A stretch of DNA of 64,000 bases from Candidatus Nomurabacteria bacterium. Its GTDB lineage: Bacteria > Patescibacteriota > Patescibacteriia > Magasanikbacterales > UBA922. Every line of letters begins with the position of its first letter. Position 1 is the first letter of the stretch. Location: positions 4,952 to 68,951 of the forward strand of contig JACKFN010000004.1 of the NCBI GenBank assembly GCA_020632445.1. Reading direction: 5' to 3'. The notes beneath the pieces were generated by a model. The model saw nothing but the letters and a program-made list of their open reading frames with translations, ran no database searches and was not told the DNA's origin. Position numbers and translations under genes: made by a program. Positions 4,650 through 53,359 of this stretch are shown here, one piece after another.

Positions 4650-4678
4650 TTGACAAAACAGACAAAATGTGATATATT
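4650..4678 (+). promoter_or_regulatory. sigma70-type promoter for the high-GC cassette 4771..5853 (TTGACA - 17 nt - TATATT with TGTG extended -10)
   Basis: ttgacaaaacagacaaaatgtgatatatt. It is near-identical in architecture to the promoter at 34786. Confidence 0.5.
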
Positions 4679-4770
4679 TTTGCGTTAGCTTTTTGGCTGT
4701 GTTATGCGTTTATTTTGGAAAGATTCTGGGATAAACGCATTTCGCAGCATGGAGCTGCAAGGAGGACGAG

Positions 4771-5853
4771 ATGAACAGGCAGATCTGGCTCATGGTGGGC
4801 CTGATGCTGGTCGGTTGTGGGCAGGACATGGGCAGCGGCCATCAGGTCGACGAGACGCCCCCGGGTCTGGACAAGGCGGAGCAGGTCTACACCGAGCTGA
4901 CGGGCAAGACCGTCGGCCACCGCTGGCCCACGGTCGAGGAGATCGAGTACAGGCCTCAGGGGCCGAGGGAGCCCGAGCACCTCCTTCTGGAGGTGCAGCT
5001 GGACGAGAACTTCGAGTACGTCCAGGCGGACAACCTCGGCGTCGTACTGATCGACATGACGGCGAGCAAGGTCCCCACGTCCGCCTACCTGGCCTTCGTG
5101 CTGGCCCGCGATCGGTTCGTACACGAGGCCAAGCGCCAGATCGAGAACTGGAAGGGGGCGAGTCCCGAGCAGTGCTGGGAGGAGTTCCAGCGTGATCGGG
5201 AGAAGCTGCAGGCCCGCGGCGCGTGCCGGTACTTCTGCACCGGCGGGTGCGAGCTGGAGCAGATCGTCAAGGATCGTGAAAAGGCCGTCGAGGACGCGGG
5301 CTACGCCCCGTGGTCGGTGGATGCCTACTGGGAACTGCACGATGCCTACGTCAGCGCGGAGATCTTCACGCCTCTGCCGGGATGGTTCGTTGTGGGCGAG
5401 GATCCCGAGCGAACGCGTCAGGTGATGGCGCTCACGACCGAGTGGGAGCGTCGCTGCATCGAGTGGCAACTCGATCGTGGTGTCGTCAAGAGCCTCGCGC
5501 TCCTGTCGACCATGGCCAAGTACCGACGCTGGGCGCTCGAAGAGTTCGGACCCGAGCTGCGCTCCGAGCTGTTCAAGCGGTGGAGCGAGAGGACGTACGT
5601 TTCCGATGAGGAGATGTCCTGTGATCCCACGGCTCCGCACGCTGACGTGCGGTTCATGATGTCCTGGGAGGTCGCCTATGAGCTCGAGGAGCGTCAGGTC
5701 AGGGACTGGACCTGCGTGAACTTCTTCGAGCGCGAGGTGCAGGCTGACGTGTGCGGCATGCCGGTGCACTCGAGCTACGACTTCATGGATGAGCAGGTCA
5801 CGCAACAGAACCTGATTCACCTGTTCCCGTTCGAGGAACACCAGGACCTGTAG
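4771..5853 (+). CDS. high-GC (about 65%) putative lipoprotein of unknown function (compositionally foreign cassette)
   Basis: AGGAGG Shine-Dalgarno 6 nt before the ATG. Signal peptide with lipobox LVGCG. GC content far above the flanking DNA. The antisense ORF 4702..5841 is a high-GC artefact. Confidence 0.6.
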   Translation: MNRQIWLMVGLMLVGCGQDMGSGHQVDETPPGLDKAEQVYTELTGKTVGHRWPTVEEIEYRPQGPREPEHLLLEVQLDENFEYVQADNLGVVLIDMTASKVPTSAYLAFVLARDRFVHEAKRQIENWKGASPEQCWEEFQRDREKLQARGACRYFCTGGCELEQIVKDREKAVEDAGYAPWSVDAYWELHDAYVSAEIFTPLPGWFVVGEDPERTRQVMALTTEWERRCIEWQLDRGVVKSLALLSTMAKYRRWALEEFGPELRSELFKRWSERTYVSDEEMSCDPTAPHADVRFMMSWEVAYELEERQVRDWTCVNFFEREVQADVCGMPVHSSYDFMDEQVTQQNLIHLFPFEEHQDL

Positions 5854-5952
5854 TCACCACGGTCCGATCCACCCACCAACATACCCCACCCCCGGCGCGT
5901 TCCCACCACGCGCCAACCCCAATTATAGTTTTCATCTTGGAAGTTATTGAGG

Positions 5953-5985
5953 GAAAAGCACAGACATTGATCTGTGCTTTTTTTA
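5953..5985 (+). terminator. rho-independent terminator
   Basis: aaagcacagacattgatctgtgcttttttt: hairpin followed by a T-run. Confidence 0.6.
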
Positions 5986-6014
5986 TTGTATAATACATGC
6001 ACACATACAAAACT

Positions 6015-10506: not shown

Positions 10507-11379
10507 ATGCAAAGCGTTCGAAAAGGAATTATTACGGTTGCAGGATTGGGTACTCGATTTTTGCCAGCTACCAAGGCCATGCCAAAAGAAATGCTTCCGG
10601 TGCTTGATAAGCCGGTTTTGCAGTATATTGTAGAAGAAATGGTCGAAAGTGGTATCAAAGAGATTATTTTTGTCACCAGTTCTCAAAAACGTCCGATTGA
10701 AGATCATTTTGACCGTGATAGAGATTTTGAAATTTTTTTGAAAAGCAAGGGAAAACTCAATCGGCTTCAACCACTCATTGATTTATGCGAGAAAGTACGA
10801 TTTTTTTATACAAGGCAGTCAGAGCCGCTCGGAAATGGACATGCCATGATGTGTGCCCGTGAGTTTGTTGGTGACGAACCATTTGCTTTTTCGGACGGAG
10901 ATTCTATTATTGACGGAGAAACACCAGTGGTCAAGCAACTCGTTAAGGTGTTTAACAAAAAACAGGCATCAGTCATCGGGGTACAGCGTATCGAAGATAA
11001 GAAAGCTATGATGAAGTATGGGAATGTCTATGGAACACCGGTTCGGGGTGAGTCAAGAACGTATCGCGTGAGTGAGTTTATTGAAAAACCGGCAATGTCA
11101 AAGGTATCACCACATGGGCTGATTGTGGGAGGAATGCGATACGTTTTCACCAAAGACATTTGGGCACATTTGGAAAAACAACGCGAAGGAAGAGATGGTG
11201 AGATATGGCTTGCAGACGCGGCCAATTCACTTGCCAAGAAAAAACCTTTTTTTGCCTATGAATACGATGGAATCTATTTTGATACCGGGGATAAACTCGC
11301 ACTGTTGAAAACAACACTTCATTTTGCCATGAAAGATAATGAAATGGCAGATGAAATTAAAAAATTTGTTTGTGGGTAA
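10507..11379 (+). CDS. galU: UTP--glucose-1-phosphate uridylyltransferase
   Basis: GIITVAGLGTRFLPATKAMPKEMLPVLDKPVLQYIVEE nucleotidyltransferase motif. Confidence 0.85.
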   Translation: MQSVRKGIITVAGLGTRFLPATKAMPKEMLPVLDKPVLQYIVEEMVESGIKEIIFVTSSQKRPIEDHFDRDRDFEIFLKSKGKLNRLQPLIDLCEKVRFFYTRQSEPLGNGHAMMCAREFVGDEPFAFSDGDSIIDGETPVVKQLVKVFNKKQASVIGVQRIEDKKAMMKYGNVYGTPVRGESRTYRVSEFIEKPAMSKVSPHGLIVGGMRYVFTKDIWAHLEKQREGRDGEIWLADAANSLAKKKPFFAYEYDGIYFDTGDKLALLKTTLHFAMKDNEMADEIKKFVCG

Positions 11380-12613
11380 AAGATTTTTACATTTTTTCGT
11401 ATTAAGTCTATTTATTGTAGTAGGTCTTTCGATGTATTTAGAAAATGCGTACGCCGCAGAGAAGCCAAGACTCATTGAGTGTGGTGTGCCAGGGGAGACG
11501 ACTCAATACACAGTCTGGTGGATGGGGGGAAAATATGAGAAAAGAGTTTGTCTCGATGTAAGGAAAGGTAAAACATCTTTAACGTATTGGGAGCTTTTTC
11601 GATCGGGGATATTTAGTGATCATGGTCCTTGGGAAGATGTGGATGCTTTCGTAAGTTACAGATGTGATGGGGCATTTTGGCGGAATCCTGGACTTCCTGA
11701 ATGGAGAAAGTTAAAGGATATTACTTTTCCACTAGAAGAAAAAATTGAAGTGGATGGAAAGAAGTGTGAATGGAGAGTTTTACTTGATACGGAAGATAGA
11801 CCAACATATATTTATTATGAGGGTGTGCAGTTGCCTTCTGAGGCAGAAGTTGCTGCTGCCGCGGGTTGTGAATGTAAAATTGAATATGCTGGGATTGGAG
11901 GAAATCCGGATCGCGGAGCTGTGTTTTTTGGTGGAGTTGCTAAGCTTCCATATGTTGATCATAACTCGATTCCCAAAAATCAGCTCTGTGGAGAAAGTAC
12001 CACCGTTACTATTGGTATAGGTCGATCAGGTCCTGCGAATGAATTGTTGAATTTAAGAAAGATTGCAGAGGCACAAGCGCTTGGTCGATCAAATTGTTGG
12101 CCAATGTATTTGAAAGAAAGTGCCGTTGCATCAAGGACTCTTCAGATCGATAATGAAGAACAGTGTAAGGCACTAGAGGGTGGACTTCAAAATTTTGCGG
12201 TCCCTGAATTTTCTATGAGACTCAATGGAATAGGAGAAGTGACAGTTCGAGGTGCATATCGTATTTTAATTAAAAGCTGTGAGATTGTTGGAAAACTTGA
12301 GAGTGCCCCTTCGGATAGTCAGCCAGTCGTTTCAGAAGTTCCTTTTTCAGTGCCAAGCCCATCTTCTCTGAACCGATTGGGGGATACCAATTTTCAGGGC
12401 CTTATTGGGAGGGCAATCAAGTTCGTTGTTCAGATGCTCGGATCCATTGCTTTTGTGATGTTTGTGTATGGGGGAATTTTGTTTATGTTTTCTGGTGGAA
12501 ATAGTAGCAAAGAATTGAAGGCCATTAAGACACTTGCTTATGGAGGTATAGGTGTACTGATTATACTTTCAAGTTATATTCTTGTTCAGTTTTTATTTAG
12601 TGCATTTTCATGA
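11339..12613 (+). CDS. T4SS-pilin-like (TrbC/VirB2-type) protein with a large N-terminal ectodomain
   Basis: Signal peptide. The C-terminal core LIGRAIKFVVQMLGSIAFVMFVYGGILFMFSGGNSSKELKAIKTLAYGGIGVLIILSSYILVQF is shared with 11 paralogs (helix - short polar loop - helix). Confidence 0.55.
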   Translation: MKWQMKLKNLFVGKRFLHFFVLSLFIVVGLSMYLENAYAAEKPRLIECGVPGETTQYTVWWMGGKYEKRVCLDVRKGKTSLTYWELFRSGIFSDHGPWEDVDAFVSYRCDGAFWRNPGLPEWRKLKDITFPLEEKIEVDGKKCEWRVLLDTEDRPTYIYYEGVQLPSEAEVAAAAGCECKIEYAGIGGNPDRGAVFFGGVAKLPYVDHNSIPKNQLCGESTTVTIGIGRSGPANELLNLRKIAEAQALGRSNCWPMYLKESAVASRTLQIDNEEQCKALEGGLQNFAVPEFSMRLNGIGEVTVRGAYRILIKSCEIVGKLESAPSDSQPVVSEVPFSVPSPSSLNRLGDTNFQGLIGRAIKFVVQMLGSIAFVMFVYGGILFMFSGGNSSKELKAIKTLAYGGIGVLIILSSYILVQFLFSAFS

Positions 12614-13431
12614 TGAAGAGATGTGGGCTTTGGTTTGTGTGTAGTTTACTCGGTGCATTTTTCGTGACTCCTCCGTTTGCCGTATCAAAGAATCTTTGTG
12701 AATGTTTTGTGGTTGTTGAGGGTGTTCAAGATCGATATGGAAACCCCGTCGGTAACCAGATTTGTAGATCAGAAGGACAGACCAAAGGAGTTTCTCAATT
12801 CGTCATAGAGCTTGGGTCTCTTTCAGGGGATACCGTACAGGTAAACTTAGAAGAAAAAATTACTCCATTGGTGAAAAATCTTTATGATGCAACCAATTAT
12901 GGGTCAAGAGCTTGTTTTCCAATTGAAGAGTCAAAGTATCGTCAGCATATAAACAAGTACATGATTGACGTAAGTAATGTGGATGTCTCTGAAGAATCTT
13001 GTGGGGATCAGTTGCATGGTCTAAGTGTAGCAGTACCGGTAAAAAGCACATCAAACGTAAATTACGATGGGTATTATGTGGCAAACCTTTCTTGTAAATA
13101 TGTTGTTAGAGAAGAAGATGGAAGTGAAGCAGTTATAATCCAAGAGGTTGGAGGGGGTTATAGGGAATTTCGTTTTCAGGACCAACTTTCCAAAGGCGTT
13201 GCCGGTTCTTTCCAGATGCTCATAGGAAAAGCGATTAAATTTGTAGTCGGAATGCTTGGATCTGTTGCGTTTATTATGTTTGTATATGGCGGAATTCTTT
13301 ATATGTCTTCGAGAGGAAATACTGACACGCAGAAAAAGGCGCTCCTTACATTGGCCTATGCAGGGATAGGAGTCGTAATTATTCTCTCAAGCTACATACT
13401 GGTGAAGTTTTTGTTTAGTGCATTTTCATAA
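12610..13431 (+). CDS. T4SS-pilin-like protein with an N-terminal ectodomain
   Basis: The C-terminal 90 aa are near-identical to the preceding gene (…FVYGGILYMSSRGNTDTQKKALLTLAYAGIGVVIILSSYILVKFLFSAFS). Confidence 0.55.
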   Translation: MMKRCGLWFVCSLLGAFFVTPPFAVSKNLCECFVVVEGVQDRYGNPVGNQICRSEGQTKGVSQFVIELGSLSGDTVQVNLEEKITPLVKNLYDATNYGSRACFPIEESKYRQHINKYMIDVSNVDVSEESCGDQLHGLSVAVPVKSTSNVNYDGYYVANLSCKYVVREEDGSEAVIIQEVGGGYREFRFQDQLSKGVAGSFQMLIGKAIKFVVGMLGSVAFIMFVYGGILYMSSRGNTDTQKKALLTLAYAGIGVVIILSSYILVKFLFSAFS

Positions 13432-14843
13432 TGCATGGTATAATAGGAGCAATTAAAAAACTTATGAAAAGGAAAATCATTGCCATATTTTCGCTTCTTG
13501 CTACCGTTCTTTTGACGGGCGGTCTTGGATGTAAGGGGTTGTCAGCCGACGAACAGGCGGCCATTCAGCCAATATCACTCACATACTGGACAGTATATGG
13601 TGATATTGATGAACTTCGGGCGCTTGCTGCAGAGTACAGCCAGCTGCGGACCTATGTCACTGTCAATATTCGTCAAATTCGGTATGATGAACTCGAAGAA
13701 AGATTGCTTACGGCGTTGGCTGATGATGTTCCACCGGATATTATCTCTATTCCAGCTGAATCTATCCCGCAGTATCTCAAGTGGCTCGAACCAATGCCAA
13801 GGCAGGTGAGTGTTTCCAACGTATACACCAAAGGGACCTATGCCAAGGAAACCGTCGTTGAGCGAGTGGTTCAGCCGATGCCAACCCTTCGTGAAATTGA
13901 AAGTACTTTTGTGCAGGCAGTCGTTGATGATGCGGTCATAGGTAATCAAGTATATGGTTTGCCACTTTCACTTGATACGCTGGCACTTTACTACAACAAA
14001 AATTTACTTGATCTTTCTGGTATTCCCACACCGCCACGAACATGGGATGACTTCCAAAAGGCTGTTGAACAGATTGTGCGTTATGATGTGAATGGAAATG
14101 TTACACAGGTTGGTGTTGGACTTGGGACAGGAAGCAATGTAAACAATGCTGCAGATATCCTTGCACTTTTGATGCTCCAAAATGGAGTAGAGCCAATTAA
14201 GGGAAACCGTGTGGCTTTTCACGCTGGAATGGAAAAAAATGTTTCACAAAACCATAAGACTTTTGAGTCGCTTCGTTTTTACACACAGTTTTCTGACAAA
14301 ACCAAAAAGGCATATACTTGGAACGAGAAACAAGAGCAAGCGCTTGATGCCTTCGTGCGTGGAAAGTCAGCATTTTACATAGGATATGCAAGGGATTTTG
14401 CGCAGATGTCACGCAGAGCGCAGGCGCTCAACCTAGAGGTTATTCCACTTCCTCAACTGAATCCAAATAGACCAACGAATGTAACGAGCTATTGGGTGGA
14501 AAGTGTTGTAGAAAAAAGTAACAAAGGAAATCATGCATGGGATTTTGTGAGATTTATGACCACGGAAAGAAACATTCGGAAGTACGTCGAGTCTACACGA
14601 CTTCCATCTCCAGTTAGGACACATGTTACTCTCTTTCAAGACGACGAAGTGCTCGGTCCATTTGCTCAGCAGGTACTCTTTGCCAAGACATGGTATTCTG
14701 GTCGTGACGCAGACAGAGCCAAGCGAGCATTTGCTGACTTGATAGAAGCATATCGCCTGCCTGGAGCAACAGATAAAAAGAAGCTTGAAAATGATGTAAA
14801 CGCTGTGAACTACGCGGCGCAGATCATCCAGCAGACATTGTAG
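13431..14843 (+). CDS. ABC transporter extracellular solute-binding lipoprotein (family 1, sugar-type)
   Basis: Lipobox LTGGLGC and a bipartite SBP-like sequence of about 450 aa. Confidence 0.65.
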   Translation: MHGIIGAIKKLMKRKIIAIFSLLATVLLTGGLGCKGLSADEQAAIQPISLTYWTVYGDIDELRALAAEYSQLRTYVTVNIRQIRYDELEERLLTALADDVPPDIISIPAESIPQYLKWLEPMPRQVSVSNVYTKGTYAKETVVERVVQPMPTLREIESTFVQAVVDDAVIGNQVYGLPLSLDTLALYYNKNLLDLSGIPTPPRTWDDFQKAVEQIVRYDVNGNVTQVGVGLGTGSNVNNAADILALLMLQNGVEPIKGNRVAFHAGMEKNVSQNHKTFESLRFYTQFSDKTKKAYTWNEKQEQALDAFVRGKSAFYIGYARDFAQMSRRAQALNLEVIPLPQLNPNRPTNVTSYWVESVVEKSNKGNHAWDFVRFMTTERNIRKYVESTRLPSPVRTHVTLFQDDEVLGPFAQQVLFAKTWYSGRDADRAKRAFADLIEAYRLPGATDKKKLENDVNAVNYAAQIIQQTL

Positions 14844-14861
14844 TTTCTTTGGATTATTACT

Positions 14862-15704
14862 ATGAAAAGATTCACGACCAAAAAAGTACTCTCAGCGGTG
14901 TTTCTGTTGCTCTTTTTTGTGATACCAACTGTAGCGGATGCTGCTGGACAATGTTTTTATTATAGTGTAAAGATTGACTACAGCAACGAAGGAAAGGCTA
15001 CCAAACAGTGTCGATCTGACATGACACAAGCAGAAAAGGATCGGTGTGAGCCGTTTACAGGCTGTGGATGTATTTTGGTGCTTGATGAGTCTCATGCGAG
15101 GTTACCTGGTGCCACTGCAAGGTGTATGGAAAACAAGGAAGGTGGATTGCAAGTGTGTGATAGTACGGGTGATATATCGACATGTAAAGATTATTTGAAT
15201 GCAGGAAGCGGTGCGCAGATAAATTCGATTGATGACTGTGTATCTATTTGTTCGACTCCGTTTGCTAATGGTTATGCGGCAGTAAAATGCACCTACTTTC
15301 GTCAGGGATTCAATTCGTGTGAAGACGTACTTGCCAAGTACCGTGCAGATTTGAACAAAGAAGAAACTTCCCCTGTTCCTGAAAGTCTCGAGCGAGGACA
15401 ACTGCGACTTCCAGACTGCGCTTACAGTAAAACCGGGTGCCGAAACATCAATGCACTTTTGGAACTGGTGATCAACATCGGCGACTGGATATTTGGATTT
15501 ATCGGTGGTGTGGCCCTTTTGGTGTTTGTCTATGGTGGGTTTGTCGTGGTAACATCATTTGGGAATGCTGAAAAAGTCAAAAAAGGATATAGTATTCTCG
15601 GAGCGGCGCTTATTGGTATGGCCATAGCGGTAAGTGCCTATTTACTCGTGGATTTCTTGCTTGATGCTCTTACGGTTAAGGAAGAGTTTAGAAGTGTAAG
15701 GTAA
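14862..15704 (+). CDS. T4SS-pilin-like protein with a Cys-rich N-terminal ectodomain
   Basis: 14 Cys in the ectodomain; the C-terminus carries the FVYGGFVVVTSFGNAEKVKKG...AYLLVDF core. Confidence 0.55.
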   Translation: MKRFTTKKVLSAVFLLLFFVIPTVADAAGQCFYYSVKIDYSNEGKATKQCRSDMTQAEKDRCEPFTGCGCILVLDESHARLPGATARCMENKEGGLQVCDSTGDISTCKDYLNAGSGAQINSIDDCVSICSTPFANGYAAVKCTYFRQGFNSCEDVLAKYRADLNKEETSPVPESLERGQLRLPDCAYSKTGCRNINALLELVINIGDWIFGFIGGVALLVFVYGGFVVVTSFGNAEKVKKGYSILGAALIGMAIAVSAYLLVDFLLDALTVKEEFRSVR

Positions 15705-15705
15705 T

Positions 15706-16437
15706 ATGAAGAAACAGATTTTGTATTTTGTGTATACTTTAGGAATTATCTGTGCAGTATTTTTTCCTATGGTCACATACGCCGAAATTGTTAAGTGTAC
15801 CTGTCGTGTAAATATTGTCCAGCCTGGTGATCTGTGTGTTGTAGAACATTCAGAGGTGTTTACCTTTGACACTGAGAATGGTGCAGTAGTTCCAATTGAT
15901 TTGCCATTAGACGGTTTTTTTGCAGATGCGGCAGATACACAAGCATGTATGAATGTCGCTCCTCCTTTTGATACCATATCTGGTGGGCAAACATTGCAAC
16001 TTGCTGTGGATAGCTGTAATGTAGATCAGGAGGAAGAAAAAGATGGGAATAGTTATACACTAAACTGCTTTTTCGAAGGACAAGATCCTGCCGCCGCGCC
16101 AGGCGCAGCAGCAGGCGCGCCAGGATCTGGCGCTGCTCCAGCCTCCGGTGGTGATGTCGGAAAAGAAGGAGAACTCCGCAAATTATCCCTTCCAAACCCT
16201 CTCCAAGAGGTAAATATCAACCGACTCATTGGGCGTATTATTGGACAGGCACTTGGCCTCCTTGGATCTATTTCACTTGCCGTGTTTGTGTATGGAGGAT
16301 TTATGTTTTTAACTTCTGCTGGTAACGATGATAAGGTCAAAAAAGGTACCAATGCCATGCTCTATGCCGCAGTCGGGGTATTCCTTGTTTTGGCAAGTTA
16401 TGTTATACTAAGGGAAGTATTTACTAAGGTATTTTAG
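15706..16437 (+). CDS. T4SS-pilin-like protein with a Cys-containing ectodomain and an Ala/Pro/Gly linker
   Basis: C-terminal core FVYGGFMFLTSAGNDDKVKKGTNAMLYAAVGVFLVLASY. Confidence 0.55.
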   Translation: MKKQILYFVYTLGIICAVFFPMVTYAEIVKCTCRVNIVQPGDLCVVEHSEVFTFDTENGAVVPIDLPLDGFFADAADTQACMNVAPPFDTISGGQTLQLAVDSCNVDQEEEKDGNSYTLNCFFEGQDPAAAPGAAAGAPGSGAAPASGGDVGKEGELRKLSLPNPLQEVNINRLIGRIIGQALGLLGSISLAVFVYGGFMFLTSAGNDDKVKKGTNAMLYAAVGVFLVLASYVILREVFTKVF

Positions 16438-16527
16438 GCCTGATTTTAGGTAAAGACATGGGATTCTTGACAAATTCGAGGCACCATGTCACTATATACC
16501 GTTATCTATCTAAACTTATGAAAGGGG

Positions 16528-16980
16528 GTGAGAAACATGCTTAGCAAATTGAGTAAGAAGGCAATGCTCGGATTCGGGGCTTTCCTCGTACTTGGAACAG
16601 CACTTGTTCCTGCTAGCGCAGGAGCTGCTGAAGTTGACGATGACGTTAACACTTTCTTTGGAGTATCATATGCACAAAAGTCAGGTCTTGGTAACCGTGA
16701 TGTGCGTGATACTATTGCCTCTATCATTCGTGTCGCTCTTTCACTTCTCGGTATTATTGCGCTCCTTATTATTCTCGCAGGTGGTTTCCAATGGATGACC
16801 GCAGGTGGTAATGATGATAAGGTTCAGGAAGCGAGAAAGCGTATGATTCAAGGTGTGATCGGTCTAGCGATCATCATGAGTGCATATGCAATCTCTATCT
16901 TTGTTATCGAACAGCTGTCAGAAGCAACCCAATCAGGTCAAGCTGATGCTGCAGATCTTGGTGCCGGTGACGAAGAATAA
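16528..16980 (+). CDS. T4SS-pilin-like protein (minimal form)
   Basis: Signal peptide plus LLGIIALLIILAGGFQWMTAGGNDDKVQEARKRMIQGVIGLAIIMSAYAI. Confidence 0.6.
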   Translation: MRNMLSKLSKKAMLGFGAFLVLGTALVPASAGAAEVDDDVNTFFGVSYAQKSGLGNRDVRDTIASIIRVALSLLGIIALLIILAGGFQWMTAGGNDDKVQEARKRMIQGVIGLAIIMSAYAISIFVIEQLSEATQSGQADAADLGAGDEE

Positions 16981-17034
16981 TATTTACCGGAGAGACGGGC
17001 GCACACTGGTGCGCCTCACTTTCTTGTAAACCCT

Positions 17035-17442: not shown

Positions 17443-17538
17443 AAATAGATAAATTGAAAAATTGTTAAATGGTTACATTGAGGATCAATAAATAGCTATG
17501 CTATCATTTGTAATGGAATAGTGTAATCCTTTAGCAAT

Positions 17539-18486: not shown

Positions 18487-18496
18487 AAAAGATTGT

Positions 18497-19273: not shown

Positions 19274-19285
19274 TAGAGCAAAATT

Positions 19286-20325: not shown

Positions 20326-20326
20326 T

Positions 20327-22689: not shown

Positions 22690-22828
22690 CCACTGCGTGC
22701 TTTAGGCGTGACGAGAGGTATTATAGGGGAAAATGGGAGGTTTGTCAAGAATAGACCGGTATGTAGGAGGATAAAAAATCCAGGCTTCAGCTGGATTTTT
22801 TGAGGAGATATTGATAAGTACCTATTGA

Positions 22829-34785: not shown

Positions 34786-34814
34786 TTGACAAAATTTGCG
34801 TTATGTGATATACA
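34786..34814 (+). promoter_or_regulatory. sigma70-type promoter (TTGACA - 17 nt - TATACA, TGTG extended -10)
   Basis: ttgacaaaatttgcgttatgtgatataca followed by AGGAGG and an ATG at 34849. Confidence 0.5.
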
Positions 34815-34848: not shown

Positions 34849-35637
34849 ATGGGAATCTCGGTCACGATCAATAAGGGGAAGCATTCCCATCCGATTCCGG
34901 ATGGGGCCAAGGAACTCCTCGAGGAGTTCTTCGGGAGCGCCGGACTCGAGGGTGAGATTACCGTCCAGCAGGGGGCGGCGGTCAAGGGCACTGCCCACCT
35001 GCAGGGCTTGACTAATGTCTCCATTAAGGGGATCAGTGGTCGGTACGTGATCGTCCGGGTTCAGCCCGGCAACAACACCACTGGTCGTGAGTACCAGGTG
35101 GTGACCCCCAATAACCTCTCGCCGCAACTTCTGTTTCGACTGCTCAAGTCCACAGCCCAAGAGCTCAAGGAAGGTGGCAGCAACGGGACAGTTGTCGGTT
35201 TCGATGATCTGCAGGACCAGGAATCGCAGATTCTGCGGCAGATTCAGGAGTGCGATGATGAACTCAATGCCCTGACCGAGAAGATCGGGCAGCTGAAGGA
35301 GTTTGTTGAAGCGGATCGCTTGCCTCTGAGTCGGCTCGAGCAGAAGATCGAGCAGGTCAGACAGCAGATCACGGCGCTGCAGGAGGCCTTGGAAGGTCAC
35401 CGACGCGAGCGCAATGGACTCGAGGAGAAGTTCTCCAAGTCCCAAAGTGATCTAGCAATCGCGCAGCATGACTACGAGGAGGCCGTGCAGAAGAGAGATG
35501 CCTTGCTGGAACGGCAACATGCTCTGCAGCAACTGCGGGCTGACAGGATAGTCGAGATCGTGCTCGATGCGGCGCATAACCAGAGTGTCGATCCGAATGT
35601 TGTTCACGCCCGACTCGGAGATCTGATTCGGGACTGA
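34849..35637 (+). CDS. high-GC (about 60%) hypothetical protein with a C-terminal coiled coil (foreign cassette)
   Basis: AGGAGGtatcATG start. A coiled-coil heptad region (residues about 130-240) spelled entirely in GC-rich codons. Confidence 0.55.
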   Translation: MGISVTINKGKHSHPIPDGAKELLEEFFGSAGLEGEITVQQGAAVKGTAHLQGLTNVSIKGISGRYVIVRVQPGNNTTGREYQVVTPNNLSPQLLFRLLKSTAQELKEGGSNGTVVGFDDLQDQESQILRQIQECDDELNALTEKIGQLKEFVEADRLPLSRLEQKIEQVRQQITALQEALEGHRRERNGLEEKFSKSQSDLAIAQHDYEEAVQKRDALLERQHALQQLRADRIVEIVLDAAHNQSVDPNVVHARLGDLIRD

Positions 35638-35725: not shown

Positions 35726-35754
35726 TTGACAAGTCAAAAGGAATGTGGTATTTT
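35726..35754 (+). promoter_or_regulatory. sigma70-type promoter (TTGACA - 17 nt - TATTTT, TGTG extended -10)
   Basis: ttgacaagtcaaaaggaatgtggtatttt. Confidence 0.4.
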
Positions 35755-35849: not shown

Positions 35850-37109
35850 TTGGGAAGAGAGCATCGTACTGGTAAGCGTAGGGGAGGCGTTCGGCACGCA
35901 CATAAGGCGCGTGCTGTCGTGCGGGCGAACTGGAACAGTCAGGTCGCGGCGCTCAGGGCCGCATACAAGTCCGGCGAGGTCGTGACCGCCGGTGATCTTG
36001 CCAAGCGATGCCCGGGGGCGTTCGAAAACGCCTACAGGGCAGGCGAGTTCCTGGTTCGGGCTCGTCAGCATGGACTGGTGGTCCAGGATGGAAAGCGGGT
36101 GCGTCTTGTCGGCGACGATGCTGGGTCAATGACTCAGGCCGGTGACGAGGACATCGGCACAATCACCAGGATCGGTGACATGGACATCATGGTCCGCACC
36201 TTCTTCGAGAGCAGGACCCCCGCTACGGCGGTTCAGTCCTTTGACCACAGGAGTCTTCAGAAAGAGGGTGGTGTTCTCGGTGGGTACACCTGGGGCGCAC
36301 TCGGGATGTTGTGCCGAGTGCTCAGCGATCGACAGCTCATCGAGCATCCGGTGGTGGAAGGCTTCTTCGGGAGAGGAAGTCGATGGGTGCTCAGTGAGGC
36401 TGGTCTTACGCATCTTCGTGAGATTCAACCCGGTCTTCTTCCAGAGCCTGAGCCTGAGCAGCAGGAACACATGGCTTCAGCCACGGTTGAGCTGGAGGAG
36501 GTCGAGGCCGCGCCAAGCGTGCCGGAGCCAGAGTCTGTCGCCGAGCCGGAACCAACCGTCGAGGTCGACACTCGTCCGGAGCCCCTCAAGCCACGCAGCA
36601 TCGATATGCGTCGATTCCGCCATGATCGCATCGTGCGCGAGCGGGTGCGTCAGGGGCTCCAAGATGCACTCGATGCATCGGGTGGGCGAAGCTGGCTCAC
36701 GCTCGGCAGGGCAGAGATGCTCGGCTTGGGTGAGGCGCTTGCTGAGCTCGAGTTCCTCGGGTGGAACCTTGTACCTGCGGGGGTACGTTCCCGTGCCTTG
36801 GGCTACTTGGCAGAGGATGGTCATATCGTGCGTCAGCGCCGAAGTGGCGTCTACGTCTACAGCCTGAAGGGGTACGAGCCTACGGCTAAGGTCGCGGCCT
36901 CTGCTGTTCCCGACAGAGCACTCGAACCCATCAAGTCCACAGCGGTCAAGTCTGGTGCTGTGTGCAAGCCTAAGCGTACACGACCTGCTGCGACTCCTGC
37001 AGTCGCTCAGCAGCAGGCAACTGAGCCAGACCTCGCAACGATCCTCCTGAACCTGTTCAGCCTGATGGCGGAGATCCCCGACGATCGTCTTCAGGTTCAC
37101 ATCAGCTGA
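35850..37109 (+). CDS. high-GC (about 65%) hypothetical protein with two winged-helix-like modules joined by an acidic Pro/Glu linker (foreign cassette)
   Basis: The frame opens at a TTG after GGGAAA, so the true start is uncertain. EPEPEQQE…PEPESVAEPEPTVE linker. Overlapping alternative-frame ORFs 36142..36867 and 36477..37157 are GC artefacts. Confidence 0.45.
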   Translation: MGREHRTGKRRGGVRHAHKARAVVRANWNSQVAALRAAYKSGEVVTAGDLAKRCPGAFENAYRAGEFLVRARQHGLVVQDGKRVRLVGDDAGSMTQAGDEDIGTITRIGDMDIMVRTFFESRTPATAVQSFDHRSLQKEGGVLGGYTWGALGMLCRVLSDRQLIEHPVVEGFFGRGSRWVLSEAGLTHLREIQPGLLPEPEPEQQEHMASATVELEEVEAAPSVPEPESVAEPEPTVEVDTRPEPLKPRSIDMRRFRHDRIVRERVRQGLQDALDASGGRSWLTLGRAEMLGLGEALAELEFLGWNLVPAGVRSRALGYLAEDGHIVRQRRSGVYVYSLKGYEPTAKVAASAVPDRALEPIKSTAVKSGAVCKPKRTRPAATPAVAQQQATEPDLATILLNLFSLMAEIPDDRLQVHIS

Positions 37110-37240: not shown

Positions 37241-37843
37241 ATGCTGTATCCAACGGGTAGAATGCTTGAGATCCTCTTGAGGGAACTCTATTTACAGGTA
37301 CAAGGGCATATTCCGGGGTCAGTGACGGTAGAGCAGGCGCAGCAGGCTACCTGTTTGATGAGGCTCTATAGCTGCACCGTTATAGCAGATGTGTTCGCCT
37401 TGGCTGTGAGGCATGAGTTGCTTGTAGAGCAAACGCCTGAGCTTTATCTGTGGACCACAAAAGCAAAACAGGCGCTACGCGATTTTGAGCAGTTGAAGTC
37501 CAAGAGAGAAACAAAGAAGTCCGAGCCAAGAAGGGGAAGGCCGGCCATGCGACTTCCAAAAGGCTTTTTGCGAAGTCCAACCTTCGAGCTCGTTGCTGTT
37601 GAAACGGTCATTTTCCTCTTGGAGGATCCATTGGATCCTGGACAGTCTGTGGAGTACGGTGTACTGATTACCCGAATGGCGCAAGAGTTCGGATTTCAGC
37701 GTGACCTGGTCGTCGCCTCCTTTGGGAAAGGACTCTTTGACCTCGCTCGAAGGGGTGTATTGGTTCTGCTGGAGAACCCTACAAAGTGTTACTCTCTGAC
37801 AGATGATGTTCGTAAAGTAGTTGCCGCGCACGCTTGCCTTTAG
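37241..37843 (+). CDS. GC-elevated (about 55%) hypothetical protein (foreign cassette)
   Basis: GAGAGGAGtgcacATG start. Followed by the C-rich tail cctacccaccttcc. Confidence 0.5.
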   Translation: MLYPTGRMLEILLRELYLQVQGHIPGSVTVEQAQQATCLMRLYSCTVIADVFALAVRHELLVEQTPELYLWTTKAKQALRDFEQLKSKRETKKSEPRRGRPAMRLPKGFLRSPTFELVAVETVIFLLEDPLDPGQSVEYGVLITRMAQEFGFQRDLVVASFGKGLFDLARRGVLVLLENPTKCYSLTDDVRKVVAAHACL

Positions 37844-41817: not shown

Positions 41818-41846
41818 TTGACAAATGGCGGCATGTGTGGTAAGTT
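41818..41846 (+). promoter_or_regulatory. sigma70-type promoter (TTGACA - 17 nt - TAAGTT, TGTG extended -10)
   Basis: ttgacaaatggcggcatgtgtggtaagtt. Confidence 0.45.
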
Positions 41847-41915: not shown

Positions 41916-42512
41916 GTGATAGAAAAGCTGTATACAGCTCGCCGTGTAGCCTTCCACGCGCGGAATGGCTTTACTCAGCGTCAACAAGAGATGCTCGTGC
42001 GGGATGGCTGTGAGCTCCACACGATCAAAGGCGGTCACCAGTTCGTGGTGATGCGCTACGACGTGGGTGAGTACACGGGTCTCCCAGTGTACGAGTTCAT
42101 GAAGGAAATGTCGGATCAAAAGGATGCTTTTTTTTCCGTTCACGTTTTGCCTGTAGAGCTTGATGGGTGGAACCAAGTGGCGGTCATCCCGGCGGGGAGT
42201 GACTACTATGCGTTTCATCTAACTACCATTCGATGGGTGCGGGGAACATACGTGTGCATCCATTTGGGCATCTGTGGAAAAAGTGGTGTGATCGTCCTCA
42301 ACTTGCATCAGCTCGAGCGAGTAGAGCAGATGCAGAAGGTAGAAGGGTTGTCTTTTGACGGGACGATCTATAGAGTTGCTACGCGACACATGCATTTTCC
42401 CGGATTCCGTGAGTTGTCCGAAGATCAACCGGACATGGGAGCCGCAGTGCTTGGATCGCTCAGTGATAGGATCGGTTCGGTACGCGCTCACGAACTGCTC
42501 GTCACTCGCTAA
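41916..42512 (+). CDS. high-GC (about 58%) hypothetical protein (foreign cassette)
   Basis: GTG start 7 nt after GAGAGGAG; no recognisable domain. Confidence 0.5.
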   Translation: MIEKLYTARRVAFHARNGFTQRQQEMLVRDGCELHTIKGGHQFVVMRYDVGEYTGLPVYEFMKEMSDQKDAFFSVHVLPVELDGWNQVAVIPAGSDYYAFHLTTIRWVRGTYVCIHLGICGKSGVIVLNLHQLERVEQMQKVEGLSFDGTIYRVATRHMHFPGFRELSEDQPDMGAAVLGSLSDRIGSVRAHELLVTR

Positions 42513-42686
42513 CAGAATCCCACCAAAAAAGGTAGTCAAAACCCTGCCACAAAGCTACCCTTCAAAAAAATTCCAAAAGTGTATATAATAGCGGTGTTAT
42601 TTGCTGATTGCATCAGAAAAACTGATGCAGCCAGGAAACCACACCAGCGACCGGGGGTCGCACTTGCGCCAGAGGAGGGCGCAACT

Positions 42687-42905
42687 ATGAAGAGGCATTT
42701 CCTGCAGCAGTCGGATCCCAACGGCGACAAGGACCCGCGTACACACGCCAAGCGTGCGTGGGTGGGGCTGACCAACGCCGGTGTTCCCGGTGTTCCCCTC
42801 GACTTCGCGAGCAACCTGCCCCTCGCCATGCACGAGGCGACGGTCGCGGGGCTGCTCACGCCGCGTGTCTTCCACAAGGGCGTGAGCCAGACCGCCAGCT
42901 TCTAG
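42687..42905 (+). CDS. small high-GC (about 65%) hypothetical protein, 72 aa (foreign cassette)
   Basis: Perfect TATAAT at 42584-42589, an 8-bp hairpin at 42609-42629, GAGGAGG 7 nt before the ATG. C-rich tail after the stop. Confidence 0.4.
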   Translation: MKRHFLQQSDPNGDKDPRTHAKRAWVGLTNAGVPGVPLDFASNLPLAMHEATVAGLLTPRVFHKGVSQTASF

Positions 42906-50425: not shown

Positions 50426-50649
50426 ATTTTCCTAAAGTCATGCTATTTAGCAGGTACATTATAGTACATTTCTTCTTCTCTATCAAGGGATGATGCATCC
50501 TCCATGCGTTACTTGACACGATCGATCTTTTCTGGTACTATAGAGCCATCTTAAGTAACTAACCCGAAATAGGGACTTTGGCGATTGCCAAGGTTAAATC
50601 CATAAAATAGGTTGCCTTAAGAGCAATTTTTTTTGTGGAAAAGGTGATT

Positions 50650-51807
50650 ATGACAACGCAAAACAAAGACTTTGCAACACTCCTCAAGGAGTACACCGCA
50701 AAGCTTCCTCATGTAGGAGATCTCATTGAAGGTACTATTGTCGCTGTAGAAAATGGTGCTGTTCGAATTGATATTGATGGACTTGCCACTGGTGTGGTTC
50801 GTGGTCCAGAGCTTTTTGCAGAATCAAAGGAATTCTCAGGAATTAAGGTTGGTCAAAAAGTGCATGCCACAGTAATCGAACAGGAAAACGAAAACGGTGA
50901 GCTTGAGCTTTCTTTTCGTGCTGCTGGATACCAACGTGTCTGGGATGCCATGATTGAAGCACGTGACTCTGGTGTGACCATTGATGCCAAGATTGTTGCT
51001 GCTAACAAGGGAGGACTCATGATGCAGGTAGACGCACTTTCTGGGTTTATGCCAGTATCACAGCTTGCCCCAGATCATTACCCACGTGTTCCTGGTGGAG
51101 ATAAGAATCGTATCCTCGAAGAATTGAAACTTTTGGTAGGACAGACTTTGCAAGTAAAAGTGCTTGATGCTATCCAAAAAGATGAAAAGCTCATTGTTTC
51201 AGAGAAGGCTGTTTGGGAAGACCAACAAAAAGCCGTTCTCGATAAGTACGGAATCGGAGACACTATTGAAGGAGAAGTGAGTGCGCTTACTTCATTTGGT
51301 GCCTTTGTAAAGTTTGGAGTTGGTCTTGAAGGGCTCGTACATATTTCTGAGATTGCTTGGCAACGTATTGAGCATCCAAAGGACGTTCTCAAGGTTGGAG
51401 ACAAGGTACAGGCTCAGATTATTGACCTCAACAAATCAAAGATTTATCTTTCTATCAAGCGTCTTGTGGACGATCCATGGAAGCAGGTAAAGGATAAGTA
51501 CAAGGTCAATGATGTGGTAGAGGGTGAAATCCACAAAGTAGAACCATTTGGTGTTATGGTAAAGCTTGATGAGCAGATTCATGGTTTGGCTCATATTTCT
51601 GAGCTTTCTGATAAACCAATCAAAGATGTCAAAGATTTGGAAGAAAAGTTTACGATTGGTTCTACGCATAAGTTTGCTATTGTGAGTATTGAACCAGCAG
51701 AACACCGGCTTGGTCTTCGTCTTGATGGAGTAAAGCCAAAGGCTCCAAAGGAAGAAAGGACAGAAGAGCCAAAGGCAAAGGAAGAAACAGCTGAGGCTTC
51801 AGAGTAA
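50650..51807 (+). CDS. rpsA: 30S ribosomal protein S1 (short 4-domain form)
   Basis: Repeated S1 domains (GDLIEGTIVAV…, GDTIEGEVSAL…, NDVVEGEIHKV…). AGGTGA Shine-Dalgarno before the ATG. Confidence 0.85.
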   Translation: MTTQNKDFATLLKEYTAKLPHVGDLIEGTIVAVENGAVRIDIDGLATGVVRGPELFAESKEFSGIKVGQKVHATVIEQENENGELELSFRAAGYQRVWDAMIEARDSGVTIDAKIVAANKGGLMMQVDALSGFMPVSQLAPDHYPRVPGGDKNRILEELKLLVGQTLQVKVLDAIQKDEKLIVSEKAVWEDQQKAVLDKYGIGDTIEGEVSALTSFGAFVKFGVGLEGLVHISEIAWQRIEHPKDVLKVGDKVQAQIIDLNKSKIYLSIKRLVDDPWKQVKDKYKVNDVVEGEIHKVEPFGVMVKLDEQIHGLAHISELSDKPIKDVKDLEEKFTIGSTHKFAIVSIEPAEHRLGLRLDGVKPKAPKEERTEEPKAKEETAEASE

Positions 51808-51821
51808 AGGATTGAAGTAAC

Positions 51822-51853
51822 AAAAAAAGCTTCTCGAAAGAGAAGCTTTTTTG
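51822..51853 (+). terminator. rho-independent terminator of rpsA
   Basis: aaaaaaagcttctcgaaagagaagcttttttg. Confidence 0.65.
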
Positions 51854-51918
51854 TTATTTGGATTGACAAAAAGGGGGTAATCATGTAAAAAGGTGAGGCG
51901 TGGCACGAGGAGGTGAAA

Positions 51919-53151
51919 GTGGACGCGAAAATGTACTGGAGCCTGGACCCCGACAACTGGGGCATGCAGCAGAAGATCGGTTACGTCCCGGTCGATGATC
52001 CGGATGCGGCGATGGCTGAGATCATGGTGTGGAACGTCCCCTACATGCGGGGCAAGATCACCATGGACAACAAGGGTTACTTCTACATCTACATTCATAG
52101 TCGGCTCCGGTGGTTCCGTGTTGGGCATGGTATCTTCGTGCTCTACCGGATGATCTGCCACATGCTCGATACCCACGCGCGGGAGATGCCGACGATTAAG
52201 CAGATCAGAAAGGCCCTTGACGGTCTGGACGTGGACTTTCAGGTCCTCGAGCCGCCGCAGACCGACCGTTTCGGTCAAGGCACGTACATTCGTGGTGTAC
52301 TTAGTGCACATCTGAGTGAGCTCGCGCGAGCAGTTGACTGCGACAAGGTCGAGGCACGCAAGTTGATCGTGCACATGCTCGGCGTGCATGGACTCGGCGA
52401 GGGACAGGAACTCAAGACGGTCGTCCTCACTTGCTTGAGCGAAGACGCACGGGAGTCGCTTCTCGATCGGCTCAGCAGCATCAGCTCCATGCATCCGCAT
52501 CTGTGCTACTATCGTGCGCAGGTGCGCCAGATGATCCTGCTGCTTGAGGATCTTCTGGATCAGGGAGTCGCAGCCGCCCAGTCCCTGATCCGCTACCTTG
52601 ATCCCAGCGCCGGACAGCCCGCCAACATCTTGGAGACCAAGATCAACGCAGTCGGTCGTTGGGTTTCAATGATGCGGATCAAGCCCTACTCGCATATCCC
52701 GGGGTACGCTGTCAGTGAGCTCGAGGAGCTCAGGCAGTTGGCTCGTGTCACTGGGAAGCAGGAAGAAGCTCTCGCGCTTGCGCGTCGAATCCACTCGGGG
52801 CTGTTGATCATGAAGATGCGTCGCAGTCTTGCGCTCTCGGCGATGCACGTCGACCATGGCAACAAGGCACTGAAGACGAAGGATGTGCGAGCCTCCAGCA
52901 AGCCGATGCGCCAGTCGCTTCTCAGGCGGATCATCGCATCCTTGGAGAGTACCTCCAGACAGTGTGCTCAAATCGATGAGACCGGCTTCTCCAACCCAGT
53001 GTGCGACCAGATTCGTGCCAATTTGTTGCAGGTGCTTTCACACCTGAAGCAGATTCTGTCACTACTGGAAACTGACGGTGATAGGGAGGAGATGGGGAGT
53101 CATTTCTCCATCGCCGCGGCGCACCTCAAGAATACGGCTCAGCTCATCTAG
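51919..53151 (+). CDS. high-GC (about 60%) hypothetical protein, about 410 aa (foreign cassette)
   Basis: Promoter TTGACA (51863)-17-TAAAAA. GAGGAGG 5 nt before the GTG at 51919. C-rich tail cccacctctgc…caccccaccggccgcc. Confidence 0.5.
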   Translation: MDAKMYWSLDPDNWGMQQKIGYVPVDDPDAAMAEIMVWNVPYMRGKITMDNKGYFYIYIHSRLRWFRVGHGIFVLYRMICHMLDTHAREMPTIKQIRKALDGLDVDFQVLEPPQTDRFGQGTYIRGVLSAHLSELARAVDCDKVEARKLIVHMLGVHGLGEGQELKTVVLTCLSEDARESLLDRLSSISSMHPHLCYYRAQVRQMILLLEDLLDQGVAAAQSLIRYLDPSAGQPANILETKINAVGRWVSMMRIKPYSHIPGYAVSELEELRQLARVTGKQEEALALARRIHSGLLIMKMRRSLALSAMHVDHGNKALKTKDVRASSKPMRQSLLRRIIASLESTSRQCAQIDETGFSNPVCDQIRANLLQVLSHLKQILSLLETDGDREEMGSHFSIAAAHLKNTAQLI

Positions 53152-53359
53152 CAAGCATTTCAGTCGATCCCACCTCTGCACAGCGGTCACCCCACCGGCC
53201 GCCAGAAGATTCCCTTGACTTTTGTGAAAAAAAAGTGTAATGTATTGCAGAAGCTTTTTCGCTTTTTTTGTTTTAAAATAATGGAACAAAGAAAGCGACG
53301 AAGCTGCGAGCATGGGCTCAAAGCGGGGATCGCGCGACTCAATGGGGAGAAGAGAGAAG

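Follow-up and report, generated by a model that had tools for sequence, protein, structure and literature searches.

GC-rich, Shine-Dalgarno-led orphan genes behind predicted host-type promoters in a Patescibacteria chromosome

Do the expression signals in front of foreign-looking bacterial genes come with these genes, or do they belong to the chromosome in which the genes stand? The question is raised by a stretch of 64,000 nucleotides (nt), here called the window, from Candidatus Nomurabacteria bacterium (positions 4,952 to 68,951 of the forward strand of contig JACKFN010000004.1, assembly GCA_020632445.1). Ten island open reading frames (ORFs), denoted c1 to c10, are set in it. An earlier reading made from the sequence alone had described their promoters and Shine-Dalgarno (SD) sequences as a uniform context of maximal strength, captured by or delivered with foreign cassettes, or else designed. 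We find that native genes have the same kind of promoter, and that the island genes are set apart by their SD sequences and their composition.

The window is a natural Patescibacteria (Parcubacteria) chromosome of about 43% GC with short islands at 55-66% GC. The island ORFs are compositionally foreign, as had been claimed: GC at third codon positions (GC3) is 0.54-0.88, compared with 0.27-0.47 in the native genes. From the predicted promoters and the composition, each island ORF also appears to be an expression unit of its own. The features of the units are collected in Table 1.

Promoters of island and native genes

At all six sites named by the sequence-only reading (4650, 34786, 35726, 41818, 51863 and 53215) the layout TTGAC(A/T), 17 nt, TAnnnn was found. 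The extended -10 element TGTG(A/G)TA, which had been reported for all of them, is present at 4650, 34786, 35726 and 41818 and missing at 51863 and 53215. At the latter two (..ATCATG followed by TAAAAA, and ..AAAGTG followed by TAATGT) TG lies directly against a poor -10 hexamer and not in the canonical register. The -10 hexamer is weak at 41818, 51863 and 53215, and the spacing of 17 +/- 1 nt between the -35 and -10 boxes holds overall. A separate consensus promoter scan lists 4650 and 35726 and omits 34786, 41818, 51863 and 53215.

The promoters at 4650 and 34786, said to be nearly superimposable, agree at 20 of 29 positions. Inspected by eye, the agreement lies mostly in the -35 box and the extended -10, and the spacers look unrelated. 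Similar numbers are obtained when 4650 is compared with native promoters (18 of 29 bases with 25626, 17 of 29 with 3057).

The strict pattern TTGACA-N14-TGnTA occurs nine times in the window, with 0.15 occurrences expected from shuffles and none of 100 shuffles reaching nine. Three of the matches precede native genes or DNA of native composition (rpsF at 3057, rpsA at 50513, and 25626), four precede island ORFs, and two lie within the island region at 54.6-57.5 kb. Checked against the gene map, all are intergenic and 5' of a gene or structured RNA. A looser version of the same layout precedes ftsH (58142), galU (10438), rpiB (34762, minus strand), the tRNA-His gene (22748, minus strand), the beta-lactamase-fold gene (50486, minus strand), pepA (43554) and others.

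A promoter weight matrix covering the -35 box, spacer, TG and -10 box was applied to genes having at least 55 nt of intergenic DNA upstream. The best scores have a median of 10.55 in the 10 island genes and of 10.35 in the 36 native genes (Mann-Whitney p = 0.52). The rpsF promoter and the c1 promoter both score 15.9, jointly the highest value in the window. Maximal strength can be granted to c1 only, with the promoters of c7 (9.6) and c8 (7.8) falling below the native median.

Since the same architecture drives native genes and the scores do not differ, it is the consensus of the host's housekeeping sigma-70-type promoters (TTGACA, 17 nt, TGn-extended TATAnT; activity predicted) and not a device of the cassettes. 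The idea of a promoter architecture dedicated to cassettes does not survive this comparison, in which native promoters turn out to have the same strength distribution. The -35 and -10 boxes of the c7 promoter are kept amid diverged flanks in L085, a relative's locus described below. Extended -10 promoters of sigma-70/SigA in Firmicutes and Escherichia coli likewise have TTGACA, a 17-nt spacer and TG one base 5' of a TATAAT-like hexamer, 25-125 nt before start codons. Compared with these nothing is unusual here; the local flavour is a frequent TGTG(A/G)TATA and an A that often follows TTGACA.

The boundaries of the GC-rich blocks were placed by two-state change-point analysis. The 5' change point lies between 85 nt upstream and 26 nt downstream of the start codon (for c4, at the very point where the c3 block ends on its 3' side) and always 3' of the assigned promoter, promoters beginning 54-126 nt before the start codon. 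Because of this position the promoters and most of the leader sequence are recipient-like, which disfavours delivery of the promoter with the cassette wherever a promoter was assigned. The SD is found at or near the boundary and, for c1, c6 and c7, inside the GC-rich block. On the 3' side the change point follows the stop codon by 18-91 nt for seven of nine ORFs, the exceptions being c9 (+4) and c5 (+115, a signal produced by the rise towards c6).

Shine-Dalgarno sequences, leaders and 3' segments

The SD sequences that had been noted were confirmed as AGGAGG at 4760 and 34839 and GAGGAGG at 42672 and 51907, 4-8 nt before the start codon. The strength of an SD was taken as the duplex energy of positions -20 to -3 against CACCUCCUUUC. 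The median is -11.3 kcal/mol for the 10 island starts and -0.4 kcal/mol for 54 native starts (Mann-Whitney p = 2e-5), which bears out in numbers the remark that native genes are mostly without a strong SD. An SD match of at least 5 nt (a GGAGG-like core, 4-9 nt before the start) was found in 7 of the 10 island genes and in 2 of the 54 native ones; 16537 is the sole gene of native composition with a strong SD. For 316 internal in-frame ATG codons of native genes the median is -3.0 kcal/mol. Because native starts are weaker still (p = 5e-7), SD-like sequence is depleted before native genes.

Several native starts agree, as checked by eye, with the N-termini of orthologs in two relatives' loci, L085 and L166 (isoleucyl-tRNA synthetase, IleRS; ribosomal protein S1; AAA28 ATPase; beta-lactamase-fold protein; GyrA; RuvA; Rpe). 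Many native -10 boxes lie only 6-14 nt before the ATG (spoU, 25540 on the minus strand, tdk, and 30977 on the minus strand), and native starts of this kind include 25950, 25540 (minus), 37915, 30977 (minus) and 22562 (minus). This suggests that leaderless or very short-leader mRNAs are widespread among native genes of the lineage. No 16S gene is present in the window, where Rfam finds two tRNAs only, or in any of the relatives' loci retrieved.

Translation is SD-independent in lineages whose anti-SD is missing or occluded, Bacteroidetes among them. In Parcubacteria, only 48% of 16S rRNAs were found to contain an anti-SD motif, and SD helices are believed not to arise in those lineages (PMC9297842). 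As in that SD-independent subgroup, core genes of the window are SD-less, with SD-like sequence depleted and many starts of leaderless appearance. Compared with SD-independent lineages, the window differs in having a minority of genes with a strong SD, and this minority matches the genes of foreign composition.

Leader 5' ends were predicted from the position of the -10 box. Five leaders (c1, c3, c5, c6 and c8) fold into very stable stem-loops that begin no farther than about 5 nt from the 5' end predicted for the transcript, with z scores from -3.8 to -8.0, and the SD of hairpin-bearing leaders stays free or occupies the hairpin loop. The c8 leader hairpin is conserved in L085: both arms are kept, with compensating changes (one double, two single) and a variable loop. 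Stem-loops at the 5' terminus stabilise mRNA in the leaders of E. coli ompA and of Bacillus subtilis aprE and ermC. The predicted geometry is the same here, with a hairpin at most about 5 nt from the predicted 5' end and then an accessible SD, and the island hairpins probably stabilise mRNA as well. Their sequences, however, are unrelated to those of the known stabilisers and to each other, and the function assigned to them is a prediction.

In the 50 nt after island stop codons C makes up 41% and G 14%, compared with 19% and 21% for natives (p = 4e-6). The 3' flanks of seven of the ten island ORFs contain CCCACC, in ten copies altogether, 2-50 nt past the stops at 5853, 35637, 37109, 37843, 42512, 53151 and 57507. 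Composition-preserving shuffles give a mean of 1.76 copies and 1.57 flanks bearing the motif, and none of 20,000 reaches ten copies (p < 5e-5 for copies and for flanks). Ten of the thirteen plus-strand copies of the entire window sit in island 3' flanks; a copy is also found on the minus strand at 54626-54631. The c7 ortholog of L085 is followed by two CCCCACC copies. For the C-rich CCCACC tract, Rho loading is a reasonable guess. A role as anti-SD mimic was rejected, CCCACC being complementary to GGUGGG and not to GGAGG, and only c3, c4, c7 and c10 extend to a CCACCTCC-like sequence. Terminator-like hairpins with T-runs were recognised by eye after c1, c2, c3 and c8, and a terminator scan lists that of c8. 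The stereotyped unit is thus broader than promoter and SD, and often includes a 5' hairpin, a C-rich tail bearing CCCACC and a terminator.

Relatives and origin of the units

The best matches of the window's IleRS (38754-41753) are proteins of Candidatus Magasanikbacteria and other Patescibacteria at 59-64% identity; the best match is 59% in species-representative genomes and 59-60% once JGI metagenomes are included. Two island proteins are already at NCBI as hypothetical proteins H6758_02845 and H6758_03110 of a 'Candidatus Nomurabacteria bacterium' metagenome-assembled genome. Four short-read contigs from Logan (runs SRR12358675 and SRR12358676) are 99.9-100% identical to the window. Three of these contain nine of the ten islands, in whole or in part, and cross island junctions, namely L083 (c1), L001 (c2 to the first part of c6) and L084 (end of c7 through c10). 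L002, from the second run, covers tdk-ileS and parts of c4 and c5, and the junction of rpsA and c7 lies outside the coverage of these contigs.

Because short-read contigs reproduce the junctions they cover at this identity, the island sequence is natural and an assembly chimera is ruled out. A chimera of low-GC and high-GC organisms, or a construct engineered from standardised parts, would agree with the change of composition near ORF boundaries, the near-consensus expression signals and the ORFs without homologs. It is nevertheless extremely improbable: the covered junctions are carried by three short-read contigs from two runs, and an ortholog of c7 with 54% identity occurs in another organism, run and study, where its context, its promoter and SD and the leader hairpin next to it are the same. 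Furthermore, coding periodicity (GC3 > GC1 > GC2) was measured in the GC-rich ORFs of relatives, the GC3 of the window's ORFs is well above their overall GC, c1 has a plausible lipobox, and the host belongs to an uncultured lineage with an IleRS only 59% identical to that of the nearest species-representative genome. No standard parts were seen, the promoter spacers and hairpins being all unlike in sequence by eye. The suggestion of design is rejected on these grounds.

Informative relatives were found by exact-protein look-ups in Logan and ENA contigs. One of them is L085, from a different run, in which S1 is 87% and the beta-lactamase-fold protein 71% identical to that of the window. The gene order is the same in both: beta-lactamase-fold gene, rpsA, c7 ortholog and a small GC-rich ORF. 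The c7 ortholog (2558-3790), which is the one known homolog of c7, has 54% amino acid identity, 410 codons, no frameshift and a GC3 of 0.61 in a host of GC3 about 0.28. In the spacer between rpsA and c7, TTGACAAAAA, TGTAAAAA, GGAGG and the GTG start are conserved between the window and L085, and the upstream terminator sequence differs. The -35 box of the spacer between c7 and c8 is also conserved.

In L166 (IleRS 64% identical) the core order rpe-rpiB-ileS-AAA28-pepA-ruvA-gyrA-beta-lactamase-fold gene is kept. Its site between rpiB and ileS holds a different ORF of 130 amino acids behind TTGACA-N17-TGTGGTATAGT and AGGAGG, and its site between ileS and the AAA28 gene an SD-led ORF of 54 amino acids. 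The corresponding sites of L167 (IleRS 63%, host GC about 0.40) are occupied by a thymidine kinase gene (GC 0.63, GC3 0.85), the product of which is 45% identical to that of the low-GC tdk of the window, and by a GC-rich membrane ORF. The P-loop of this thymidine kinase (3226-3789) reads MFSRKS, not MFSGKT. GC-rich, SD-led small ORFs adjoin SD-less core genes in the distant Patescibacteria loci L088 and L007 as well, and in L085, L166 and L167 too core genes are SD-less and accessory ORFs SD-led. Because relatives hold different or diverged genes at the same intergenic sites, the island sites are hot spots at which genes turn over rapidly. The division into SD-led accessory and SD-less core genes is a property of the clade.

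The island proteins obtained no assignment from Pfam, PHROG, NCBIfam or PADLOC, apart from coiled-coil noise for c2. All-against-all BLASTP of the island proteins of the window and its relatives showed no paralogy except for one pair in L088. The structure model of c1 has a predicted local distance difference test (pLDDT) score of 36 and is unusable; that of c7 has a score of 58, with only the C-terminal helical bundle confident and no significant fold match in the PDB. Three known sources were considered and rejected. Plasmid origin was dropped as the c1 DNA has no plasmid match, phage origin as viral contigs contain nothing closely related to c2, c3 and c9 and PHROG gave no meaningful hits, and a diversity-generating retroelement as the window contains no pair of template and variable repeats.

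On balance we favour horizontal acquisition of genes that carry their own SD and are expressed from recipient-type promoters. Short foreign GC-rich blocks would have been acquired at intergenic hot spots between conserved core operons, each consisting of an SD, one orphan ORF and about 20-90 nt of C-rich 3' flank, usually with CCCACC. An AT-rich promoter of recipient type, captured or evolved in place, would transcribe each block as a unit of its own. The 5'-terminal stem-loops of five leaders would stabilise the mRNA, and several units would end in terminator-like hairpins. The SD most likely arrived with the ORF from a donor that uses SD sequences, and for this reason would mark the island genes in an SD-less or leaderless genome. 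Transfer, its direction and donor, promoter activity, hairpin function and the functionality of the SD are what we infer from sequence. For Patescibacteria, both genomic islands and gene transfer have been documented as common (PMC12455944).

A number of observations weigh against this account. No donor was found: in large-database homolog searches, which covered c1 and c7, c1 matches only itself (in 5.8e9 clusters and in 1.84e9 representative proteins) and c7 only the ortholog of the sister lineage; c2, c3 and c9 were searched against viral contigs. Pfam detected no integrase, transposase or recombinase among 20 ORFs scanned. The repeat search of the window gave no flanking direct repeats, and only a possible additional island at 23647-24255 adjoins a tRNA. 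An AT-rich promoter is to be expected in any genome, so that composition alone cannot prove recipient origin. If the lineage has no anti-SD, the SD sequences would be relics; their conservation in c7 speaks against this, yet comes from two sequences. Finally, GC at four-fold sites is 0.73 and 0.60 in the two c7 orthologs, compared with 0.21 and 0.11 in the flanking S1 gene and 0.40 and 0.27 in the beta-lactamase-fold gene. Four-fold sites of core genes differ at 47-56% between the two hosts, corresponding to about 0.7-1.0 neutral substitutions per site, and in a hand-run equilibrium-resampling model 45-60% of the GC excess is lost per lineage, so that an ancestral four-fold GC above 1 would be needed. 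This leaves two readings, replacement of the alleles after the split or maintenance of high GC3, as judged from one ortholog pair and rough divergence estimates.

Alternatively, the whole unit of promoter, hairpin, SD, ORF, CCCACC segment and terminator might be a mobile, moron-like cassette shared among related Patescibacteria, in which the promoter is delivered with the gene. The units are indeed self-contained, monocistronic and unlike their neighbours in composition; promoter, SD and ORF of c7 are inherited en bloc in L085; the excess of CCCACC in island 3' flanks hints at a common 3' end; and by eye all island TTGACA boxes continue with an A (TTGACAA), which is seen in roughly half of the native boxes too. 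A type IV pilus ATPase gene (pilB), named in the window by the sequence-only reading, would fit competence. However, the GC-rich block excludes the promoters and most of each leader, no repeat family joins promoters, hairpins or flanks across islands save for c9 and c10, and promoter identity is by eye mostly limited to the consensus elements. The content of the same site is wholly different between relatives, and the searches for plasmid (c1) and phage (PHROG; c2, c3 and c9 in viral contigs) relatives turned up none. We regard as unlikely such a cassette, which would spread by, for example, natural transformation and recombination through conserved flanking core genes.

Less probable again is that GC-rich, SD-led genes form a maintained class, in which selection keeps high GC3, mRNA structure and SD because these genes are translated or stabilised differently from the SD-less core mRNAs. 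The high GC3 of the c7 orthologs, which outlasts a divergence that should have brought neutral sites most of the way to equilibrium, would be explained, as would the GGAGG kept in both c7 leaders, the division into SD-led accessory and SD-less core genes in several relatives, and the strong SD of the native-composition gene 16537. Island coding regions also fold somewhat better than dinucleotide shuffles (median z about -2, compared with about 0 in natives; p = 0.037, 300-nt segments). The persistence of GC3 is known from a single ortholog pair with a rough divergence estimate, though, and the span from 0.54 to 0.88 looks like an age series toward host composition; unrelated orphans with fast turnover between relatives fit transient imports better. 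A yet bolder form, to which we give little credence, holds that the core genome abandoned SD-dependent initiation, and that the orphans, while turning over rapidly, are kept GC-rich, structured and SD-led (all with a consensus promoter, many with a stabilising 5' hairpin, most with CCCACC on the 3' side) as maintained signals of a separately controlled expression channel. If true, this might mean selective SD-dependent translation by a ribosome the anti-SD of which is normally unused or occluded or, more extremely, genes adapted to being expressed in the bacterial host, GC-rich and SD-using, of what is presumed to be an episymbiont.

The units may be compared with known systems. Phage morons (PMC3594210) are likewise single-gene units with their own promoter, usually a terminator-like hairpin downstream, and a composition unlike that of their neighbours. 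Unlike morons, the islands have core genes as neighbours (rpsF-ssb, rpiB, tdk, ileS, pepA, rpsA), with no prophage context or meaningful PHROG hits. The genomic islands and islets of Patescibacteria (PMC12455944) are also compositionally deviant accessory genes that vary at conserved sites. In contrast to them, the islands described here are very small (0.2-3 kb), with no mobility genes, direct repeats or donor detected; every gene comes with a consensus promoter, an SD and a 5' hairpin of its own, and GC3 is high in a diverged ortholog pair. Gene cassettes of integrons are, like the islands, single ORFs of foreign composition that look independent of a promoter and share a short 3' feature. 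Here, by contrast, each unit has a promoter of its own, the units are scattered over 53 kb and not arrayed, and the common 3' feature is CCCACC; no attC-like inverted repeats, intI or Pc were seen in the repeat search of the window and the Pfam scan of 20 selected ORFs. The units are regarded as a variant of known islet-like or moron-like acquisitions in an unusual, SD-less host.

Other features of the window and implications

Table 1. Positions of the island units, native control promoters and further features in the window (PWM, position weight matrix score; MFE, minimum free energy of the leader fold)
Feature	Position	Strand	Description
c1 promoter	4650..4678	+	TTGACA-N17-TATATT, TGTGA extended -10; PWM 15.9
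c1 leader stem-loop	4686..4757	+	starts ~7 nt past -10 box; SD unpaired; 0/200 shuffles fold as well; MFE -36.0 kcal/mol, z -5.9
c1 SD AGGAGG	4760..4765	+	duplex -11.2 kcal/mol
c1 ORF	4771..5853	+	360 aa, lipoprotein-type signal (..LVGC); GC 0.64, GC3 0.88
c1 3' segment	5854..5921	+	C-rich, G-poor, three CCCACC; GC-rich block ends ~5921
c2 promoter	34786..34814	+	TTGACA-N17-TATACA with TGTGA; back to back with native rpiB promoter 34762-34734 (-)
c2 ORF	34849..35637	+	262 aa, coiled-coil, GC3 0.70; SD AGGAGG 34839, duplex -13.9; CCCACC 35656
c2 inverted repeat	35692-35719	+	AAAAAACTCCTCTTTGAGGAGTTTTTTG; terminator reading is our own, absent from terminator scan
c3 promoter	35726..35754	+	TTGACA-N17-TATTTT with TGTGG; score 14.0
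c3 leader fold			MFE -21.6 kcal/mol, z -3.8
c3 ORF	35850..37109	+	419 aa, GC3 0.65; weak SD AGAGGG 35838; CCCACC 37121
c4 ORF	37241..37843	+	200 aa, GC3 0.54; SD GAGGAG 37230 (-11.4); weak promoter 37187; CCCACC 37851
c5 promoter	41818..41846	+	TTGACA-N17-TAAGTT with TGTGG; score 11.5; just past ileS terminator
c5 leader stem-loop	41858..41902	+	20-bp perfect stem, ~5 nt from predicted 5' end; then free SD GAGGAG 41903; MFE -35.4 kcal/mol, z -8.0
c5 ORF	41916..42512	+	198 aa, GC3 0.59; SD duplex -11.7; CCCACC 42519
c6 unit	42561..42905	+	promoter TTCAAA-N17-TATAAT 42561-42589; SD GAGGAGG 42672 (-12.7) in hairpin loop; leader MFE -38.5 kcal/mol, z -5.6; 72-aa ORF 42687-42905, GC3 0.86
c7 promoter	51863..51891	+	TTGACAAAAA..TG, then TAAAAA; weak -10; both elements kept in L085
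c7 ORF	51919..53151	+	410 aa, GC3 0.74; SD GAGGAGG 51907 (-15.9); CCCACC 53169, 53191
c8 unit	53215..53590	+	promoter TTGACT-N17-TAATGT 53215-53243; stem-loop 53252-53305, MFE -27.2 kcal/mol, z -6.3; 92-aa ORF 53312-53590, GC3 0.84; no clear SD
c9 ORF	56297-56977	+	GC3 0.70; SD AAGGAG 56286; no assigned promoter
c10 ORF	57079 or 57131 to 57507	+	shares 5' repeat with c9
rpsF promoter (native control)	3057..3085	+	TTGACA-N17-TATATT with TG; PWM 15.9
rpsA (S1) promoter (native control)	50513..50541	+	TTGACA-N17-TACTAT with TG
ftsH promoter (native control)	58142..58170	+	TTGACA-N17-TATACT
tRNA-His promoter (native control)	22720..22748	-	TTGACA-N17-TATAAT
Structured region with promoter	54600..55182	-	promoter 55182-55154 TTGACA-N17-TATATT with TGTGA (TTGACAAATATTGTATTTTGTGATATATT), joint top score
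Small hydrophobic ORF unit	55348..55714	+	promoter 55348 TTGACA-N14-TGATA; ~230-nt leader; SD GGAGGG 55602; 33-aa ORF 55613-55714, GC3 0.91

Several observations concern the islands and their surroundings. c9 and c10 have a 65-nt upstream repeat in common (56139-56203 and 57074-57138, 89% identical), the copy upstream of c9 encoding only a truncated, 25-amino-acid version of the c10 N-terminus. Their 3' flanks, after 56977 and 57507, share by eye a similar stretch of about 30 nt (..AATCACCACAyTCAAACAAAGTTTTT). These repeats are what is left of a local tandem duplication. Opposite c1, at 4702-5841 on the minus strand, the gene caller of contig L083 took an antisense ORF of 379 amino acids over c1 (GC3 0.64, compared with 0.88 on the plus strand). 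A moderately GC-rich gene on the minus strand at 23647-24255 (GC 0.55, GC3 0.59) adjoins tRNA-Arg. Its promoter reads TTGACT-N17-TTCAAT and its SD is weak; possibly this is an older island outside the earlier list.

On the minus strand, 54600-55147 is a region of about 548 nt with 57% GC and no convincing ORF, the fold of which reaches -223.5 kcal/mol (shuffles -178 +/- 6.4, z -7.1). The unit ends in CCCACC and then a hairpin with a T-run, read by eye as a terminator, and Rfam finds nothing in 54.4-56.4 kb at E<=1. The region is a candidate for a large structured RNA or a decayed island gene. Divergent from its promoter at 55182 is that of the strongly hydrophobic 33-amino-acid ORF at 55613-55714 (VKYELSVIMTPVVFTLVHLALIAGFCASLTGRI), and the layout of 55348-55714 resembles that of the small membrane toxins of type I toxin-antitoxin systems.

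The plus-strand stretch 25626-25780 combines a consensus promoter (TTGACA-N17-TATACT with TGTGC) with an ATG right behind it that opens a short, very basic ORF. Simple ORF listing misses this ORF, which probably encodes a small protein on a leaderless mRNA. The plus-strand region 11300-21450 is a run of paralogous small ORFs with shared repeats (families D1, D2, D4, D5 and D14), 16537 among them; from the translations we would guess that they have hydrophobic, pilin-like N-termini. Within the ORF 60181-60714, four tandem repeats of 33 nt (11 codons) occur at 60332-60456 on the minus strand.

The promoter observation as such is ordinary. It supplies a usable promoter consensus, TTGACA-N17-TGTGrTATAnT, for an uncultured Patescibacteria lineage, in which acquired genes would run on the host consensus. 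The antisense call over c1 illustrates that gene callers stumble in GC-rich islands, and a strong SD together with high GC3, the mark of accessory genes here and at the syntenic hot spots of relatives, provides a simple sequence criterion for flagging recent imports in such genomes. The persistent GC3 of c7 is a puzzle that bears on the adaptation of foreign genes, or their resistance to it, in streamlined symbionts. The dichotomy between SD-led island genes and SD-less core genes would offer a natural test of whether the Parcubacteria ribosome still uses SD pairing, a point raised by earlier work (PMC9297842).

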